Shown here: piece by piece, positions 1 to 63,111 of the stretch
Layout: each line of letters starts with the position of its first letter
Position numbering within the stretch: position 1 is the stretch's first letter
Source of the DNA: Spirochaetales bacterium
GTDB lineage: Bacteria > Spirochaetota > GWE2-31-10 > MWDO01
DNA length: 64,000 nt
Assembly: GCA_017540815.1 (NCBI GenBank)
Contig: JAFYAI010000016.1
Span: 666 to 64,665, forward strand
Direction of reading: 5' to 3'
Notes under the pieces: generated by a model
What the model was told of the DNA's origin: nothing
Database searches by the model: none
Seen by the model: only the letters and a program-made list of their open reading frames with translations
Made by a program: the position numbers and the translations under genes

Positions 1-647
1 AGGGGGCTATGACTAATTGGTCTTATTCTACAGGTTATACGACTCTGACAGTCACCAATACCAACACGATGTCTGCCGAAGACGCGATGTATCTCCTGCC
101 GTCGCATTATGTCAACCACGATGACTACCGCATTCAGAATATCGTCGCCGATGTAACAGCACAGCTGCCTGACGGAGCGACGACCTCCGATAAACTGCGG
201 GCACTGCATGATTGGGAGACTGACTTCCTCTACTACGACTACGGCAGTATAGGTGACTACAGCGATAACCGCCGTCATCAGGAGTCTGTATGGGTGCTGG
301 ATAACAAGACTGCTGTCTGCGAAGGATATGCCAATCTCTACGCCGCACTTGCACGGCAGATAGGTGTCAAAGTCCAATATATCTCCAGCAGCATTATGAA
401 TCACGGCTGGAATAAGACATTCTTCGATAACGGCTGGAGACTCACTGATGTGACTTGGGATGACCCAACGACAGAACCGCGTGACTATACAAACACTGAG
501 CCGCTGCCATACCGGGAGAACTACAGCTACTTCATCATCGATGGCAATGATGGTCACGAAGAAGGCACTGATGCCGAGGCTGACAGCGGACGAGGTTTAC
601 AGGCTCCGCCTAAAATGTTGGGAGAAGCATTGGACGGCTGGTATTAA
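1..647 (+). CDS. Transglutaminase-like cysteine peptidase domain protein. Frame is open to the window start, so the 5' end may be truncated. An in-window ATG at 9 follows AGGGGG.
   Basis: Cys/His/Asp triad context: AVCEGYANLYAAL ... NHGWN ... DVTWDD. Confidence 0.6.
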   Translation, partial: GAMTNWSYSTGYTTLTVTNTNTMSAEDAMYLLPSHYVNHDDYRIQNIVADVTAQLPDGATTSDKLRALHDWETDFLYYDYGSIGDYSDNRRHQESVWVLDNKTAVCEGYANLYAALARQIGVKVQYISSSIMNHGWNKTFFDNGWRLTDVTWDDPTTEPRDYTNTEPLPYRENYSYFIIDGNDGHEEGTDAEADSGRGLQAPPKMLGEALDGWY

Positions 648-56158: not shown

Positions 56159-56470
56159 ATGGATATAACTCTGATACAATCTTTATGTAAACAACGCAAG
56201 ATAAAATGGTCTTTGCATTCATCCGAAAAAATGGCAGAGCGAGGAATAATGCGTTCCGATGTAATTAATTGTATAGAGTATGGTGAAATCATCAAAGATT
56301 ATCCTGATGATACTCCAAATCCAAGTTATCTGATATTCGGTCAAGATTTACGAAGTAAGATTCTGCATACAGTTGTCGGATATAGTAAAGAAACCTTGTT
56401 TATAATAACAGCTTATTATCCGGACACAAGTATATTTGAATCGGATTTACGAACAAGAAAAAAGAGGTGA
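56159..56470 (+). CDS. DUF4258-family protein (toxin-like)
   Basis: HSSEKMAERGI…GEIIKDYPDD…LHTVVGY…IITAYYPD matches the DUF4258 signature. Confidence 0.7.
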   Translation: MDITLIQSLCKQRKIKWSLHSSEKMAERGIMRSDVINCIEYGEIIKDYPDDTPNPSYLIFGQDLRSKILHTVVGYSKETLFIITAYYPDTSIFESDLRTRKKR

Positions 56471-56703
56471 ATATGTGCTTTTACTGCAAAAACGAAAAAA
56501 CTAAAAATTCCATCACAACATATATGGTAGACTTAAAAGACTGCATTATCATTATAAAAAATGTTCCGTGTGAAGAATGTACTCAATGTGGCGAGAAATA
56601 TATCAGTGACGAAGTAATGGAACGAATCGAAAAAATTATTCGACAGGTTCGTTCAATTGCAGGAGAAGTTTTTGTCACAGATTATACGAAAAAAATCGCA
56701 TAA
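56467..56703 (+). CDS. YgiT-type (MqsA N-terminal-like) zinc-finger protein
   Basis: CFYCKNEK…CEECTQCGEKY four-Cys zinc ribbon. ATGA overlap with the DUF4258 gene. Confidence 0.65.
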   Translation: MNMCFYCKNEKTKNSITTYMVDLKDCIIIIKNVPCEECTQCGEKYISDEVMERIEKIIRQVRSIAGEVFVTDYTKKIA

Positions 56704-56739: not shown

Positions 56740-59235
56740 TTACACTATCCCGGTAACCTTATAATCTTTTGCTTCAACTGCTGTTTTAAGCACATCGTCA
56801 GCGACATCTTTGCTCAACTCGACAATCGCCGTACCTGCAGTATGGCTTGGCGTTGCAAGTGTTACTCCGTCGATAGCCTCCAATGCTTTTTTGACAGTGG
56901 CTTCACAGTGTCCGCACATCATCCCTTCGATCTTAAGTGTTTTTGTCATAGTAGAAGTCTCCTTATTGTCTGTTAGATTTTTATCAGAGTTATCATCAGG
57001 TGATGATTTTCCATTTTTGTTAAATTTCAGCAGGTTAAGCCGCAGTGCATTGCTGACTACACAGAAACTCGACAGGCTCATTGCTGCCGCACCAAATGCC
57101 GGAGTAAGCACAATGCCGAACAGCGGATACAATGCCCCTGCCGCCAACGGAATGCCGATAATATTATAGATAAATGCCCAGAAGAGATTCTCATATATAT
57201 TGCGAAGCACGGCACGCCCGATCCTGACAGCTGCTGCGACATCAGTCAGCGAATCACGCACCAGCACAACATCTGCGGCATCTTTGGCAACATCCGTTCC
57301 GGCACCGATTGCAGCACCGACATCGGCAGCGGTTAAGGCAACGGCATCATTGATACCATCACCGACCATCATCACACGACCTGTCTGCTGTATTTCCGCC
57401 ACGATCTTGGCTTTCTGATCCGGCAGCACTTTGCCGAATATCTTATCTGCCTTGATCATATTACCGACTTTATCGGCAGCAGCCTGATTGTCACCTGACA
57501 GCAGACATACACTTAGTCCCATACTGTGCATACGCGATACTGCGGCGATACTGTCAGGTTTCAGCTCATCCGAGAATGTGATAATACCTATCGGCTGATC
57601 TCCAACAGCGACTGCGATAAGTGTCTGCCCGGCAGTGCTTATTTTGCTCAATGTCTCTTCTAATGCTGTCTTTGCATTGTCGGCTGTTATCTCCGCCAAG
57701 ATCATATCTGCACTGCCGACAGTTATCGGAGTTCCATTCTGAGAGACAGCTCTAATCCCATGCCCTGCGGTCTCTGTGATATTGCTGACATCCTGAGCCG
57801 TCACATTCTGAGCTTCGGCATAACGGCAGACAGCCACCGCCAGCGGATGAGAACTGCTCCGCTCCAGAGAGTAAGCCGCCTGCACAATTGTGAGGCTATC
57901 CGCATCCCCGATCGGATAAATGCCGGTAATCTCAGGCTGCCCCTTCGTCACAGTGCCTGTCTTATCAAGTATCACATTCCGCACGCGACCTGTCAGTTCC
58001 AGACTCTCCGCCGTCTTGAACAGGATGTTGTGACGAGCCGCAACGCCGCTGCCGACCATGATAGCAACAGGTGTCGCCAGACCCAATGCACACGGGCAAC
58101 TGATAACCAGCACGCATATACCGCGAGCCAATGCAAAGCCGACAGTCTGACCTGCGAAGAGCCATATCAGAGCGGTTATAATCGCAATCATCGTCACAAT
58201 AGGCACGAAGATGCCGCTCACCCTGTCAGCGACTCTGGCAATCGGAGCTTTGGCAGCTGCGGCATCTCCTACCATAGCTATAATCTTGGACAATGCAGTA
58301 TCACTGCCGACTTTGTCGGCACGAATATGGATCACGCCATTGAGATTGATCGTTCCGGTATAAACCTGTGCCCCCTCGGACTTATTCACAGGCATACTCT
58401 CGCCGGTCAAGGCAGACTCGTTGATGCTTGTCATTCCGTGAATGACAACCCCGTCTGCACTGACATTCTCACCGGGGCGGATGACGATCTCATCACCGAC
58501 AGACAGTTCCTCTATCGGAATAATCAGTTCCACACCGTTCCTGATAACAGACGCATTCTGCGGAGTCAGGCTCGCCAACGCACGAAGTGCATCCGTAGTG
58601 CGGCCTTTTGCAATCGCTTCAAGCAATTTGCCGACAGTGATAAGCACGAGTATCATACCGGCAGACTCGAAATAATAATCCGATGACGAGAGATGCTTGT
58701 CCATTGACAGCATTATCAGAATGACAGTGCTGTAGATATATGACACTCCAGAGCCCAACGCCACAAGAGTGTCCATATTGGGAGACAAGTGCATAATGCC
58801 TTTTATGCCATTGATGAAAAATCTGCGGTTGATAATCAAAATAATCCCGGATAATATCATCTGGATAATGCCAAGCGTCACTGGATAATCTTTGAGACCA
58901 AAGTCAGGAGCTCCGAACATCAGTCCCATCCCGAAATACATCAGTACCACCAAAACCACTCCGGAACTGATAAGACGCATAACAGCATTACGCACTTCGT
59001 CGGATTGAGTCGATTGTGTCTCATCTTGCTTCTTTGCAGAAGGCACAGCCGCATCATAACCTGCCTTGCGCACAGCCTGTATTACCCTGTCCGGCGGCAC
59101 ATCACCATCGACTGTCATGCTGTTAGTCAGCAAATTAACAGAGCAGTCTGTTACCCCATCCACTTTTGAGACCGCCTTCTGCACTCTGGCCTGACAGGCG
59201 GCACAACTCATACCCATTACATTATATTTAATCAT
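56740..59235 (-). CDS. copA: Copper-translocating P1B-type ATPase CopA with an N-terminal HMA domain and an extra C-terminal HMA (CopZ-like) domain fused in frame
   Basis: GMSCAACQ, CPC (SCPCALGLATP), DKTGT, GDGINDA, C-terminal MMCGHCEATVKKALE. Confidence 0.92.
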   Translation of the reverse strand: MIKYNVMGMSCAACQARVQKAVSKVDGVTDCSVNLLTNSMTVDGDVPPDRVIQAVRKAGYDAAVPSAKKQDETQSTQSDEVRNAVMRLISSGVVLVVLMYFGMGLMFGAPDFGLKDYPVTLGIIQMILSGIILIINRRFFINGIKGIMHLSPNMDTLVALGSGVSYIYSTVILIMLSMDKHLSSSDYYFESAGMILVLITVGKLLEAIAKGRTTDALRALASLTPQNASVIRNGVELIIPIEELSVGDEIVIRPGENVSADGVVIHGMTSINESALTGESMPVNKSEGAQVYTGTINLNGVIHIRADKVGSDTALSKIIAMVGDAAAAKAPIARVADRVSGIFVPIVTMIAIITALIWLFAGQTVGFALARGICVLVISCPCALGLATPVAIMVGSGVAARHNILFKTAESLELTGRVRNVILDKTGTVTKGQPEITGIYPIGDADSLTIVQAAYSLERSSSHPLAVAVCRYAEAQNVTAQDVSNITETAGHGIRAVSQNGTPITVGSADMILAEITADNAKTALEETLSKISTAGQTLIAVAVGDQPIGIITFSDELKPDSIAAVSRMHSMGLSVCLLSGDNQAAADKVGNMIKADKIFGKVLPDQKAKIVAEIQQTGRVMMVGDGINDAVALTAADVGAAIGAGTDVAKDAADVVLVRDSLTDVAAAVRIGRAVLRNIYENLFWAFIYNIIGIPLAAGALYPLFGIVLTPAFGAAAMSLSSFCVVSNALRLNLLKFNKNGKSSPDDNSDKNLTDNKETSTMTKTLKIEGMMCGHCEATVKKALEAIDGVTLATPSHTAGTAIVELSKDVADDVLKTAVEAKDYKVTGIV

Positions 59236-59351
59236 AGACTGCTCCTTTCAACAGCAGACTTTTTTTGCAGGCATCCGTGCCTGCCGCCTGCATTAGCACT
59301 TCCGTGTGCGTCAACAGCGGCACAAGACATACCCATTACATTATACTTCAT
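59232..59351 (-). CDS. Candidate 39-codon leader ORF whose first 12 codons duplicate the copA N-terminus. Its stop overlaps the copA start (ATGA).
   Basis: Minus-strand translation MKYNVMGMSCAAVDAHGSANAGGRHGCLQKKSAVERSSL*. copA begins MIKYNVMGMSCAAC. Confidence 0.35.
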   Translation of the reverse strand: MKYNVMGMSCAAVDAHGSANAGGRHGCLQKKSAVERSSL

Positions 59352-59393
59352 TGTTTTACTCCACTAACTTTTTATGATATATTTTCCCCTGTA

Positions 59394-59430
59394 AAAAATC
59401 CGAGGTTCGTCAGGACCTCGGATTTTTTTG
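59394..59430. terminator. Terminator after the trpB2-like gene
   Basis: aaaaaatccgaggttcgtcaggacctcggattttttt. Confidence 0.7.
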
Positions 59431-59442
59431 TCTTATTATATT

Positions 59443-60810
59443 TTACATCTTCGGCAACGCATCGAATCCTTTCTGCAGATCCGCATCAGTCGGGATATAA
59501 TCCGTCATTGTGCCGTTGTTGTATGCTTCATAAGCCTTGAGGTCAAAGTAACCTGTGCCTGTCAATCCGATAAGGATCGTCTTAGCCTCCCCGGTCTCTT
59601 TGCACTTCATCGCTTCATCGATAGCGACTTTGATAGCGTGGCTGCTCTCAGGTGCAGGCAGGATGCCTTCCACTCTTGCGAATGTAACAGCCGCCTTAAA
59701 TACATCAGTCTGCACTGCGGATCGTGCTTCCATCAGACCGTCATCAAATAATTGTGACAGAACCGAACTCATACCGTGGTATCGCAGACCGCCTGCATGA
59801 TTAGCCGATGGGATAAAGTCAGCACCCAAAGTGTACATCTTAGCCAGCGGACAAACGCGACCTGTATCACAGAAGTCATACGCATACTTACCGCGTGTCA
59901 GACTCGGACAGCTGGCCGGCTCTACAGCGATGATCTGATAATCTTTAATTCCGCGGATCTTATCAGTCATAAACGGAGCGATCAATCCGCCGAGGTTAGA
60001 CCCGCCTCCGGCACATCCAACGACTATATCCGGTGAGATACCGTATTTATCCATCGCTGCTTTAGCTTCCAGACCAATGACTGACTGGTGGAGCAGGACC
60101 TGACTGAGCACACTGCCCAGCACATATCTGTAGCCTTCGGACTTAACAGCTGTCTCAACAGCTTCGGAGATCGCACAGCCCAAACTGCCGGTAGTTCCCG
60201 GATGCTCAGACAGGATCTGTCGTCCTACATCCGTTGTATCAGACGGCGACGGAGTTACGGAAGCACCATAAGTCCTCATAACTTCACGGCGGAACGGTTT
60301 CTGCTCATAAGAGCACTTAACCATATAGACTTTGCAGTCCAATCCGAAATACGAGCAAGCCATCGACAATGCTGTTCCCCACTGACCAGCACCGGTCTCT
60401 GTGGTGACACCTTTCAGTCCCTGCTTCTTAGCATAATATGCCTGTGCGATAGCAGAGTTGAGTTTGTGGCTGCCGCTTGTGTTGTTGCCTTCAAATTTGT
60501 AATAGATCTTAGCCGGCGTGCCTAATTTCTTCTCCAAGAAGTATGCCCTCACAAGCGGTGACGGACGGTACATTTTGTAGAAATCGAGTATCTCCTGCGG
60601 AATCGTAATAAACTCATCGGTATTATTCAACTCCTGCTTCACTAACTCGTCGCAGAATACGCCTCGCAACTCATCGAATGTCATCTCCTTATGAGTGCCG
60701 GGATTCAGCAGCGGTGCCGGTTTGTTCTTCATAACAGCTCGCATGTTCAGCCAAGCTGTCGGCAACTCCTTTTCTTCCAGATAGATTTTGTACGGAATAT
60801 TTTTGTCCAT
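59443..60810 (-). CDS. trpB: Tryptophan synthase beta chain-like PLP enzyme (TrpB2-type, stand-alone)
   Basis: GSHKLNSA…ETGAGQWGTALSMACSYFGLDCKVYM matches the TrpB PLP-lysine region. 455 aa with an N-terminal extension typical of TrpB2. Confidence 0.85.
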   Translation of the reverse strand: MDKNIPYKIYLEEKELPTAWLNMRAVMKNKPAPLLNPGTHKEMTFDELRGVFCDELVKQELNNTDEFITIPQEILDFYKMYRPSPLVRAYFLEKKLGTPAKIYYKFEGNNTSGSHKLNSAIAQAYYAKKQGLKGVTTETGAGQWGTALSMACSYFGLDCKVYMVKCSYEQKPFRREVMRTYGASVTPSPSDTTDVGRQILSEHPGTTGSLGCAISEAVETAVKSEGYRYVLGSVLSQVLLHQSVIGLEAKAAMDKYGISPDIVVGCAGGGSNLGGLIAPFMTDKIRGIKDYQIIAVEPASCPSLTRGKYAYDFCDTGRVCPLAKMYTLGADFIPSANHAGGLRYHGMSSVLSQLFDDGLMEARSAVQTDVFKAAVTFARVEGILPAPESSHAIKVAIDEAMKCKETGEAKTILIGLTGTGYFDLKAYEAYNNGTMTDYIPTDADLQKGFDALPKM

Positions 60811-61011: not shown

Positions 61012-61740
61012 TTACTCATATTTCATCGCGACAAGTCCGGTCAGATCAAAGACAAGTGCTGCTTTGATAATCTTCTTCCCGCTCATATCATAACGATCGG
61101 CATAATGCTTTTCGTCAATCTGACTCAATGCCTCAGCTGCTCGTTTGTCAGGATCTGTTTCCAATGAACATCTGCGGCTGTCGCATCCATGCACTGCAGA
61201 TGCTGCCGACATCCGTGTCGTCAGTATTTTATATTCAAATATATATACCTTGTCAGATAATTCTACAACAGTGTCGGCTCTGCCGCAGAGTGAGACCGAC
61301 TCGCTTGTCGTAGTGAAACCTGTCAGCGTGAATACCATGTGCAGCACATTGCGGTACATATCTTCGCAGACGGATTTGTCTGTCAAATACGGCAGATTGG
61401 CGATACTCGCTTTGATCAGTCCTTCCAGCCGTGCAAAGTCACATTCACGAAGTGCATTGCGAAAATGATATGCGGTTAAGCCTAATCCGTCATTCGTTAT
61501 CGGCGAAATCTTCGGCAGCAGAGACTCATAAAAACCGGATCGGACTTCATAATTCGGCAGACCGAGAGTATAGAGTTTCGATTCTTTATCGTAGCTCTTT
61601 ATCGTAAGATAGCCGGACTGATAAAAAAGCGGCAAAAATCCGACTGCATTCGGCTCAAAGTTATCAAATGCAGACTCCAAAACGGAAGAAGTCTCGACAA
61701 GGTTGGATATATACTCATTATGCTGATTAAAATACCACAC
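61012..61740 (-). pseudogene. 3' fragment, about the last 220 aa, of a paralog of the AAA-ATPase/PDDEXK_9 gene at 51328-52890. The N-terminal ATPase part is absent.
   Basis: Aligns with residues about 300-520 of the intact paralog (…YQSGYLTIKSYDKESKLYTL…IFEYK…ALVFD). No upstream coding continuation. Confidence 0.7.
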
Positions 61741-61914
61741 CGCAGATACATGGATTATGCAGGCAAAGAGTTTTTTCAGTAATATACATAAAAACTTATA
61801 TAAATTAGCAAGTTTCTAAGTTATTTACTTAAAAATTATCAATAAATAAATACTTTTTCAGTGTTTTATTTAAAAACTATTGACAAAGATGAAGTTTTTC
61901 AGTAAAATGTCAGT

Positions 61915-63111
61915 ATGAACAATGAAAACATAAACAGACAAAGTTATATCAATCAACTGGATAAATATCGCAATATACAATTAGTCAAAATATTGTCAGG
62001 CATTCGCCGCTGCGGTAAATCAACACTGCTGGAGATGTATAAACAACATCTGCTGCGAAATGGCATACCCTCAAGTCACATTATTCACAGAAACTACAGT
62101 GCTATCCAATATGAAGATTGGACTGCCAAACAGATGTTTGACGACATCATGTCGGGAATGCACGATGCTGATACGCACTATCTGCTGCTCGATGAAGTGC
62201 AGGAGATAAACGGTTGGGAGCGGACTGTCAATACGCTGTTGGAGACCAACAAAACCGATATATATATAACAGGCTCCAATTCCCGTCTTATGTCGTCAGA
62301 ACTGTCCACATACCTGACCGGTCGGTATGTTCAGATACCGATATACACACTCTCATTCCGTGAATATCGTGATTTCTGCGGTGCCAATCAAACTCGCAAT
62401 AATCTGTTCCAAAAATATCTGCGGTAGGGAGGCTTCCCGATTACTGCTATTGGCAATTTTGACGACAACTCGGTTTATCAGATTGTCGAAGATATATTCG
62501 GCTCGGTTGTAACGAAAGATATTTCCAAGCGGCATAATATCAGCAACACTGCATTGTTTGATAAAGTCGTCAGATTTGTGCTGGAGAATGTCGGCAAGAA
62601 TTTCTCCACTAACTCTATCGTGAAATTTCTTAAAGGTCAGGGGCGGTCTATCAATCCTGAAACAGTCTATAACTACCTTGATTGGCTGGAGAGAGCGTTT
62701 GTAATCTATCGCTGCAACCGCTACGATATACAAGGTAAAAATGTTCTCAAAACTCAGGAGAAATACTACCTCGCAGACAGCAGTCTGAAATATGCTTTGA
62801 TGGGATATAATCCGACATCAGCAGCATCTATGCTGGAGAATATTGTCTACCTTGAACTGTGCCGACGAGGTTATGAAGTCTATACCGGCAAAGACGATAC
62901 TCGCGAGATTGACTTCGTTGGAGTTCGTCAGAATGACAAAATATACATACAGGTCTGCCGTCAGCTGCCTGAGAATTCCGATCGTGAGATAGGCAACCTT
63001 AAACTAATCAAAGACAATTATCCGAAATATGTCTTGACCTTAGATGAAACTGCTATCGGCACTGATGACGGCATTATTATTGAAGATATTAGAGATTGGT
63101 TGGAGAGGTAA
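61915..63111 (+). pseudogene. AAA_14 / DUF4143 ATPase paralog interrupted by a single in-frame TAG at 62425-62427
   Basis: ORFs 61915-62427 and 62554-63111 share one frame. Translating through gives …YLR*GGFPITAIGNF… where intact family members have YLRYGGFP, so TAG replaces a Tyr codon. Confidence 0.7.

Follow-up and report, generated by a model that had tools for sequence, protein, structure and literature searches.

Bacterial copper exporters are usually described under the control of transcription factors such as CueR, CsoR and CopY, and post-transcriptional control of copper genes by an upstream open reading frame (ORF) has been recognized only recently, in the cases of CruR and CutF. 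Translational coupling via an overlapping stop and start codon (ATGA), and control by leader ORFs, are general bacterial mechanisms. In Bordetella pertussis the copper-responsive upstream ORF is CruR, which contains DUF2946 (PMC9426467); that of Rhodobacter capsulatus is CutF (PMC9973294). Both are longer than 100 aa and carry an export signal, a conserved CXXC or CxxxC and, at fixed spacing, a C-terminal RAPP or proline-rich arrest motif; the post-transcriptional control that they exert requires translation of the upstream ORF and acts through Rho termination or through a stem-loop that masks the Shine-Dalgarno (SD) sequence (PMC9426467, PMC9973294). In Escherichia coli, a small HMA chaperone named CopA(Z) arises by programmed -1 frameshifting inside copA (Meydan et al. 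2017, Drees et al. 2017, as cited in PMC7558416). Here we describe a short ORF that precedes copA in a 64,000 nt stretch (the window) of an uncultured Spirochaetales genome (contig JAFYAI010000016.1, positions 666 to 64,665). It is a real, conserved and previously undescribed copA leader found in a narrow spirochaete lineage, and the known theme to which it belongs is translational coupling by a leader ORF.

The leader ORF is on the minus strand (59351..59232; ATG 59351..59349, TGA 59234..59232) and its 39 codons specify the peptide MKYNVMGMSCAAVDAHGSANAGGRHGCLQKKSAVERSSL. The same 39-aa ORF is predicted by gene callers on public contigs. As the initial annotation of this region had reported, its TGA overlaps the copA ATG (59235..59233) as ATGA, and a near copy of the copA start lies about 115 nt upstream of the gene. 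The two ATG codons are exactly 116 nt apart, and from TATAATG to GCCGC the two copies are identical at 27/29 nt, with both mismatches in a codon that is TCT in one copy and AGT in the other, both encoding Ser. Each start codon has its own SD, GGAG 7 nt ahead of the leader ATG and AGGAG 6 nt ahead of the copA ATG. The copA product scores 536 bits on the TIGR01511 profile (cut-off 397), which identifies it as a P1B ATPase of the copper type. When the first 60 nt of copA were compared with their own upstream 500 nt, the self-match score was 23 in this lineage and no higher than 12 in 80 other copA loci, and the start repeat is therefore beyond chance. Only codons 2–13 are copied, and the remaining 80 nt of the leader have no similarity to copA (local alignment of leader positions beyond nt 36; p = 0.33 and 0.53).

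A search for neighbours of this CopA over 5.8 billion sequences, all of those used here being from metagenome assemblies, returned a first cluster at 99% identity and a second at 74%, all others being at 55% or less. The members of the 99% and 74% clusters are metagenome-assembled genomes (MAGs) named at NCBI as uncultured Spirochaetales. They form two sister clades in which CopA is 74% identical at the amino acid level and 72% at the nucleotide level. The leader was found in L081/L082, L084/L086 and L085 of the window clade, and in L083, L087, L089, L090 and L103 of the second clade. The exact 39-aa peptide is present on 16 contigs from independent samples, each time between a gene for a pyridoxal phosphate (PLP) enzyme and copA. 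The samples with such contigs include some from ruminant gut, for example ERZ28653461 and ERZ1029114/5. Three real peptide clusters were all that emerged from an indexed search, a scan of metagenomes and an exhaustive HMMER run against 1.84 billion representatives; besides one chance match, the metagenome scan added only L083-clade contigs, namely L090 and L091 (the latter identical with the L087 contig). Neither a leader nor a duplicated start was found upstream of 80 more distant copA genes (50–54% identity). As 16 independent contigs carry the leader and the searches gave only three clusters, we conclude that it is stable but limited to this lineage. Upstream of the leader, the second clade has a gene for a repeat protein in place of that for the PLP enzyme, and its neighbouring genes are unrelated, so that the leader and copA appear to move as one unit, and no regulator gene adjoins that unit. 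In L094, L096 and L101, a patch of copA (nt 59–92; window 59177..59144) differs by 11 substitutions in about 35 nt that change KVDGVTD to KIDGVTE; the patch partly matches the sister-clade sequence (ATTGACGGTGTAAC), which indicates short-tract recombination between co-resident relatives.

In both clades the layout is the same, namely SD GGAG, a 7-nt spacer, ATG, the copied copA codons (the mimic), a GC-rich 43-nt core, a tail, and TGA on the copA ATG. When the window and L083 were compared region by region, there were 8/16 differences in the upstream/SD region, 12/39 in the mimic (ATG through the CxxC codons), 1/43 in the core, and 21/31 in the tail, which is unalignable and also differs by 3 nt in length. 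The first 57 nt of copA differ at 11/57 positions, and 28% of copA is different. Against 42.5% GC for the window as a whole, the core, which includes the stretch CACGGAAGTGCTAATGCAGG, has 65% GC, a value reached or exceeded in 0.4% of 43-nt windows, and its codons are non-preferred. All of its synonymous sites (13/13) are identical between the clades, where 52% would be expected from the third-position identity at identical residues of copA, and only 17/814 copA windows are conserved as strongly as the core. Among ten window-clade contigs, there are no polymorphic sites in the core (0/43), 4/39 in the mimic and 26/404 in copA. The core is not derived from copA. No second copy of it was found in the window or in 80 outgroup loci, where a covariance model also found no match, and there was no match in plasmid or phage records to indicate a mobile-element origin.

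Two hairpins can be drawn in this part of the leader (Table 1). Between the clades, hairpin B, which is formed by the 3' half of the core, has undergone one double change, A-U to U-A, and one change of G-C to G-U. Because these changes alter two amino acids (R24W and L28Q) while the pairing persists, they point to a constraint at the level of the nucleic acid. Judged by these comparisons, the segment under selection is the 43-nt core and not the CxxC-like peptide.

The initial annotation had placed its weight on that peptide, which proves to be the wrong place. Within clades, the mimic varies more than copA and mainly by non-synonymous changes, which are Y3S, S9L and A15T in L085, C10Y in L087 and L090, and V5L, C7G, S9N and V12A in L103; for this reason the mimic peptide is not under purifying selection. 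The replacement of the second Cys of CxxC, noted previously in this window as CAAV, is characteristic of the window clade; the corresponding loop is CAVC in L083, YAVC or YAAC in L087 and L090, and CAAC in L103, and no GMxCxxC loop is conserved among the variants. The earlier view that the leader is not a functional HMA agrees with the profile searches, in which three leader variants matched no Pfam family even at E ≤ 10, HMA/CopZ (PF00403) and DUF2946 included, and no NCBIfam family. In each clade the mimic parallels its own copA start, with NVMGM in both copies in one clade and NVF(C/G)M in both in the other, a pattern of concerted evolution, and two of the changes in L103 bring its mimic to identity with its own copA copy. 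Gene conversion between the repeats is apparently the simplest cause of this resemblance.

The Ser codon of G-M-S-C is exchanged between the copies. In the window clade the leader has TCT (59325..59327) and copA has AGT (59206..59208); the sister clade shows the reverse, with AGT in its leader and TCT in its copA (L083 392..394 and 504..506). An AGY codon is used in 76/82 outgroup loci. The swap could represent a reciprocal exchange between the repeats, or two independent double substitutions that each preserved Ser; RNA pairing offers no clear explanation. Antiparallel pairing of the two copies around these codons was considered and rejected, since the TCT/AGT combination helps in the window (-17.5 versus -12.7 kcal/mol) and is of no help in L083, and S9N in L103 breaks the pairing.

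At the 5' end, GGAG, the 7-nt spacer and CAATGAA are retained in both clades in upstream sequence that is otherwise unrelated. At the 3' end, the tail provides the SD and ATG of copA in both clades, and because its length differs by 3 nt the leader frame and the stop/start overlap are retained. The coupled geometry that the initial annotation had emphasized is therefore conserved, the leaders of the L083 clade likewise ending in TGA on the copA ATG (AGATGATGA) despite the unalignable tail, and the frame is open in 9/9 distinct variants. As the SD, spacing and ATG have been kept amid randomized upstream sequence, and the frame and overlap have been kept through the tail, translation of the leader appears to be important. 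We infer that the leader is translated, that copA is coupled to it and that the core modulates this coupling.

The tail of the window clade also includes an A7 run (59260..59266) that forms an in-frame dnaX-type slippery heptamer, A AAA AAG, from which the -1 frame would end ...KKVCC*, 24 nt ahead of copA. The run is A6 in L085 and missing from the sister clade, and for that reason is probably just a mutational hotspot. It does not constitute a conserved programmed -1 frameshift site, as the heptamer is confined to the window clade and the hairpin is only 0–1 nt downstream of it. Hairpin B is followed by A7 in the window and by UUGG in L083, and in neither by a U-run. In the sister clade, gene callers start copA at an ATG inside the core hairpin (L083 444..2972 and L087 444..2972), and the resulting 842-aa models (P0002 and P0124) swallow part of the leader, so that annotation misses it; alternative models of this copA are 829–831 aa.

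The origin of the arrangement can be read from L088, a member of the L083 clade. In L088, the 41 nt that in other members lead into and open the leader (agagaaagtaaaaagaggagatgttcaATGAAATACAATGT) continue straight into copA, so that the leader's upstream region and the ATGAAATAC start directly head the gene. This allele is the product expected of recombination between the two repeats, by whose collapse the leader was lost. The layout of L088 shows that the SD and ATG of the leader are the original ones of copA.

Our preferred reading is a tentative one, which we regard as plausible though short of probable: that the leader is a lineage-specific, translated, cis-acting element by which translation of copA is tied to ribosomes moving through the structured core. 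Some 116 nt would have been interposed at the 5' end of copA, leaving the original ribosome-binding site, ATG and codons 2–12 of copA at the head of a short ORF and a duplicate of these codons at the start of the present gene. Ribosomes would load at the old, open initiation region (predicted unpaired fraction 0.6–0.74, versus 0.4–0.5 for that of copA), translate through the 43-nt GC-rich structured core, terminate on the copA start (ATGA) and be able to re-initiate there. CopA synthesis would then be coupled to, and limited by, the passage of ribosomes across the core, with additional direct initiation permitted by the new SD of copA. Under this scheme, the resemblance of the peptide to an HMA loop is most likely a by-product of its origin, kept by gene conversion, and not a matter of peptide function.

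A number of observations weigh against the coupling scheme. The initial annotation would have taken the absence or frame disruption of the leader in close relatives, with copA expression unchanged, as refuting it. The sequence changes both occur, which by themselves neither confirms nor refutes a regulatory role: the copA of L088 is 96.7–97.5% identical in nucleotide sequence to those of other second-clade members, yet has no leader, and in L085 a 1-nt deletion (A6 for A7) alters the last 12 codons and moves the stop to 11 nt inside copA. These two alleles indicate that the leader is dispensable or tolerant of change. For the ORF to stay open and end at or after the copA ATG was estimated to be only weakly improbable by chance. 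The folding energy of the whole leader is ordinary (z = -0.2, -1.5 and -0.5), and 13/18 of the proposed pairs never vary, with only one double change among them. With an SD of its own and an initiation region that is only moderately structured, copA is not forced to depend on coupling. Finally, short-tract exchange between the clades could account for part of the identity of the core, though the fixed, compensated differences at its 3' edge argue against a very recent transfer.

The same features could also have a non-adaptive cause. If a rearrangement at the 5' end of copA, comprising a partial duplication and about 80 nt of unrelated sequence, left a scar that is translated simply via the inherited old ribosome-binding site, it would have no regulatory role and would be subject to slow decay or deletion. 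The frameshift in L085 and the complete loss in L088 fit such a scar, as does the evolution of the mimic and tail, 4–6 times faster than that of copA within clades and mostly non-synonymous. The very narrow distribution (three peptide clusters among 1.84 billion representatives and 0/80 outgroup loci) and the failure to find significant RNA structure are also in keeping with it. A scar would not, however, retain a 43-nt island at approximately 98% identity, synonymous sites included, between flanks that differ by 31% and 68%, nor would it retain the leader SD and ATG while their upstream surroundings were randomized, or keep the leader stop at the copA start across a tail that cannot be aligned. 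We therefore consider this explanation unlikely, and of the alternatives it survives best.

The core could instead be the binding site of a trans-acting factor, with the ORF incidental; candidates for that factor are a metal-responsive repressor bound as a roadblock to a DNA operator, and an mRNA-binding protein or small RNA. Two short palindromes in the core, GCAC-ACGGAA-GTGC and GGCA-CGGA-TGCC, share one centre, and the symmetric double change described above would suit a dimer site as well as a hairpin. The differing neighbourhoods and the lack of an adjacent regulator gene indicate that control is either self-contained or exerted by a distant factor. The site is far from any promoter position, lying some 40–85 nt downstream of the leader ATG; the core fits neither a sigma-70 nor a sigma-54 promoter, and a scan did not identify the promoter. 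A motif scan of the 64-kb window detected no signature of CsoR, CopY, MerR or ArsR. Loose matches to GGCA-N4-TGCC number nine in the window, against 2.6 expected, but they are weaker, lie inside long reading frames and probably reflect a coding-sequence effect; GGCA-N4-TGCC was rejected as a regulon motif, the core being unique. On balance, a trans-acting factor is quite unlikely.

A more ambitious proposal is that the core and the surrounding leader ORF form a cis-acting sensor for the copper exporter, either as a small structured RNA or as a nascent His/Cys peptide (DAHGSANAGG-x-HGC). Such a sensor would respond directly to Cu(I) or thiol stress and gate the access of ribosomes to the copA start, with the duplicated start serving as a decoy for the core. 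We consider this whole combination very unlikely; if true, it would constitute a metal-responsive translational switch that has no dedicated regulator protein.

Of the two forms that RNA- and peptide-based control might take, an RNA switch of three segments would have the core as an antisense element that pairs either with the CxxC codons of the leader, as a decoy, or with those of copA, trapping being decided by ribosome occupancy of the leader. RNAalifold predicted hairpin B together with a long-range helix between the core (GCAGGCGGC) and the CAAC codons of copA (GCCGCCUGC), which are exact complements in both clades, and a substitution in the core of L087 (C to T) retains a pair as G-U. 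The predicted duplexes have energies of -27 to -32 kcal/mol for the core with the copA copy and -20 to -27 kcal/mol for the core with the leader copy. These are not beyond those of dinucleotide shuffles of the GC-rich core (z = -2.2, -1.0, -0.6 and -1.1), the helix falls at copA +21 to +42, largely beyond the initiation footprint, and the pairing registers differ between the clades, two clades giving almost no power to detect covariation. No conserved hairpin that would mask the copA SD was found, the predicted masking being only moderate; the leader is not a transcription attenuator of the trp/his type, as no intrinsic terminator was found between it and copA, the sole terminator-like site in 58900..59800 being upstream of the leader; and in a comparison with Rfam 15 the best score was 24 bits (thresholds 62–86; E > 0.1). 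On these models, a switch with decoy, antisense and target segments is possible, and we give it little credence.

We give still less to a copper-sensing nascent peptide, in which Cu(I) bound via His16, His25 and Cys27 (again DAHGSANAGG-x-HGC) would alter the progress of the ribosome in the manner of CruR and CutF. Copper-sensing upstream ORFs do have a precedent (PMC9426467, PMC9973294), and residues D14, H16–G23 and H25–C27 are invariant in every variant. The conservation of synonymous sites and the R24W and L28Q replacements caused by the hairpin changes place the constraint on nucleotides, however, and the CxxC-like part varies. The leader lacks an arrest motif and an export signal; it has no RAPP, no Pro at all and no hydrophobic N-terminal segment, and its C-terminal tails are unrelated between the clades. 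The remaining suggestion, made in the initial annotation, of a decayed copZ or degenerate extra HMA domain is largely refuted and hardly tenable. In its favour, the first 12 residues match an HMA start, L083 and L103 keep a CxxC, and in some distant relatives copA is preceded by a genuine HMA gene or domain. Against it, the ORF has 37–42 codons where an HMA domain has about 65–70, nothing past codon 13 resembles copA or an HMA in any frame, the upstream HMAs of those relatives are of a different type (IEGMHCxxC), and the mimic follows the start of its own copA, which marks it as a duplicate of that start and not a separate gene.

The features of the locus are collected in Table 1.

Table 1. 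Positions of the leader, copA and associated features in the window
Feature	Position	Strand	Evidence
Leader ORF, 39 codons + TGA	59232..59351	-	ORF on 16 public contigs; 37- to 42-codon homologues in L083, L085, L087, L090 and L103
Leader SD GGAG, 7 nt ahead of ATG; ancestral copA ribosome-binding site	59359..59362	-	Kept in both clades; heads copA directly in L088
Mimic, copy 1 of copA codons 2–13 (AAGTATAATGTAATGGGTATGTCTTGTGCCGC)	59317..59348	-	Similarity to own copA copy in each clade
Conserved 43-nt GC-rich core (GACGCACACGGAAGTGCTAATGCAGGCGGCAGGCACGGATGCC)	59270..59312	-	Clade comparison, polymorphism, GC content
Hairpin A, GCAC-acggaa-GTGC, 4 bp, weak	59296..59309	-	Invariant apart from one break in L085
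Hairpin B, GCAGGCA-cgga-TGCCTGC, 7 bp	59267..59284	-	All 7 pairs kept in 6 sequences
9-mer CAGGCGGCA, exact reverse complement of copA CAAC codons at 59195..59203	59282..59290	-	p about 0.05
Variable tail with A7 run (59260..59266) and present copA SD AGGAG (59242..59246)	59236..59269	-	Clade comparison
ATGA overlap of leader stop and copA start	59232..59235	-	Same geometry in L083 clade (AGATGATGA)
Copy 2 of repeat, within copA, codons 3–13	59198..59229	-	Self-comparison
copA, copper P1B-type ATPase, 831 aa, HMA domains at N- and C-terminus	56740..59235	-	Profile match
Two-way terminator hairpin closing upstream PLP-enzyme gene, ~40 nt ahead of leader SD	59393..59428	.	Terminator scan

The second HMA domain of CopA, at its C-terminus (IEGMMCGHC), is encoded by 56740..56940 on the minus strand. 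Clostridial relatives at 50–54% identity align across it, indicating that the architecture is shared, and copA looks Firmicutes-like despite residing in a spirochaete MAG. Convergent on its 3' end is a DUF4258/YokU-like gene pair, a putative toxin-antitoxin system (56159..56703, plus strand), which is beside copA in the window clade and in L088 and is replaced by HSP20 genes in L087. On the other side of the leader, the loop and upper stem of the terminator hairpin and of its equivalents in L086 and L096 vary between strains (TCCTGACGA, TTCGGTCGA and TTCAGCCGA), and the stem stays complementary. Further away (61012..62427), PDDEXK_9 and AAA_14/DUF4143-type ORFs appear fragmented and are on opposite strands. 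L085 has a single gene for a 539-aa AAA-ATPase_like/PDDEXK_9 protein at the corresponding place, and the version in the window may be rearranged or decayed.

The leader and copA form a self-contained unit, found in two genomic neighbourhoods, with a short and strongly constrained element inside the leader. If the core gates copA translation, the unit would represent a compact, transferable control module and another case of metal homeostasis that is free of a regulator. The locus illustrates how a leader ORF may be born from partial duplication of the start of a gene, and the merged copA models in the second clade expose an annotation problem.

Among known systems, copZ-copA operons are alike in having a small ORF with an HMA-like beginning immediately upstream of copA. 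They differ in that the leader described here is not an HMA by profile or by length and has no similarity past codon 13. CopA(Z), as it is described in the cited summary, resembles it as a second short product from the 5' region of the copA transcript, and the window clade has an in-frame A AAA AAG in the leader. CopA(Z) is, however, a complete HMA from inside copA, whereas the leader is an ORF of its own, upstream of copA, in which just 12 residues are HMA-like, and the A-run is missing from the second clade and variable in length within the first. With CruR and CutF, the leader shares its position before a copper-homeostasis gene and the presence of Cys-containing motifs. It differs from both in its length of 37–42 aa, in having no signal peptide, arrest motif or DUF2946 match, and in a CxxC that is not conserved.

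The closest likeness in form is to coupled leader ORFs in general. These are short upstream ORFs with their own SD and a stop that overlaps the start of the target, and the downstream initiation region is the less accessible one. At this locus, too, the leader has its own SD and start, both conserved among relatives, and its stop overlaps the downstream start. Two differences set it apart: strong masking of the downstream SD is not predicted, and the leader opens with a copy of the first codons of its target, followed by a GC-rich core that is conserved at the nucleotide level.

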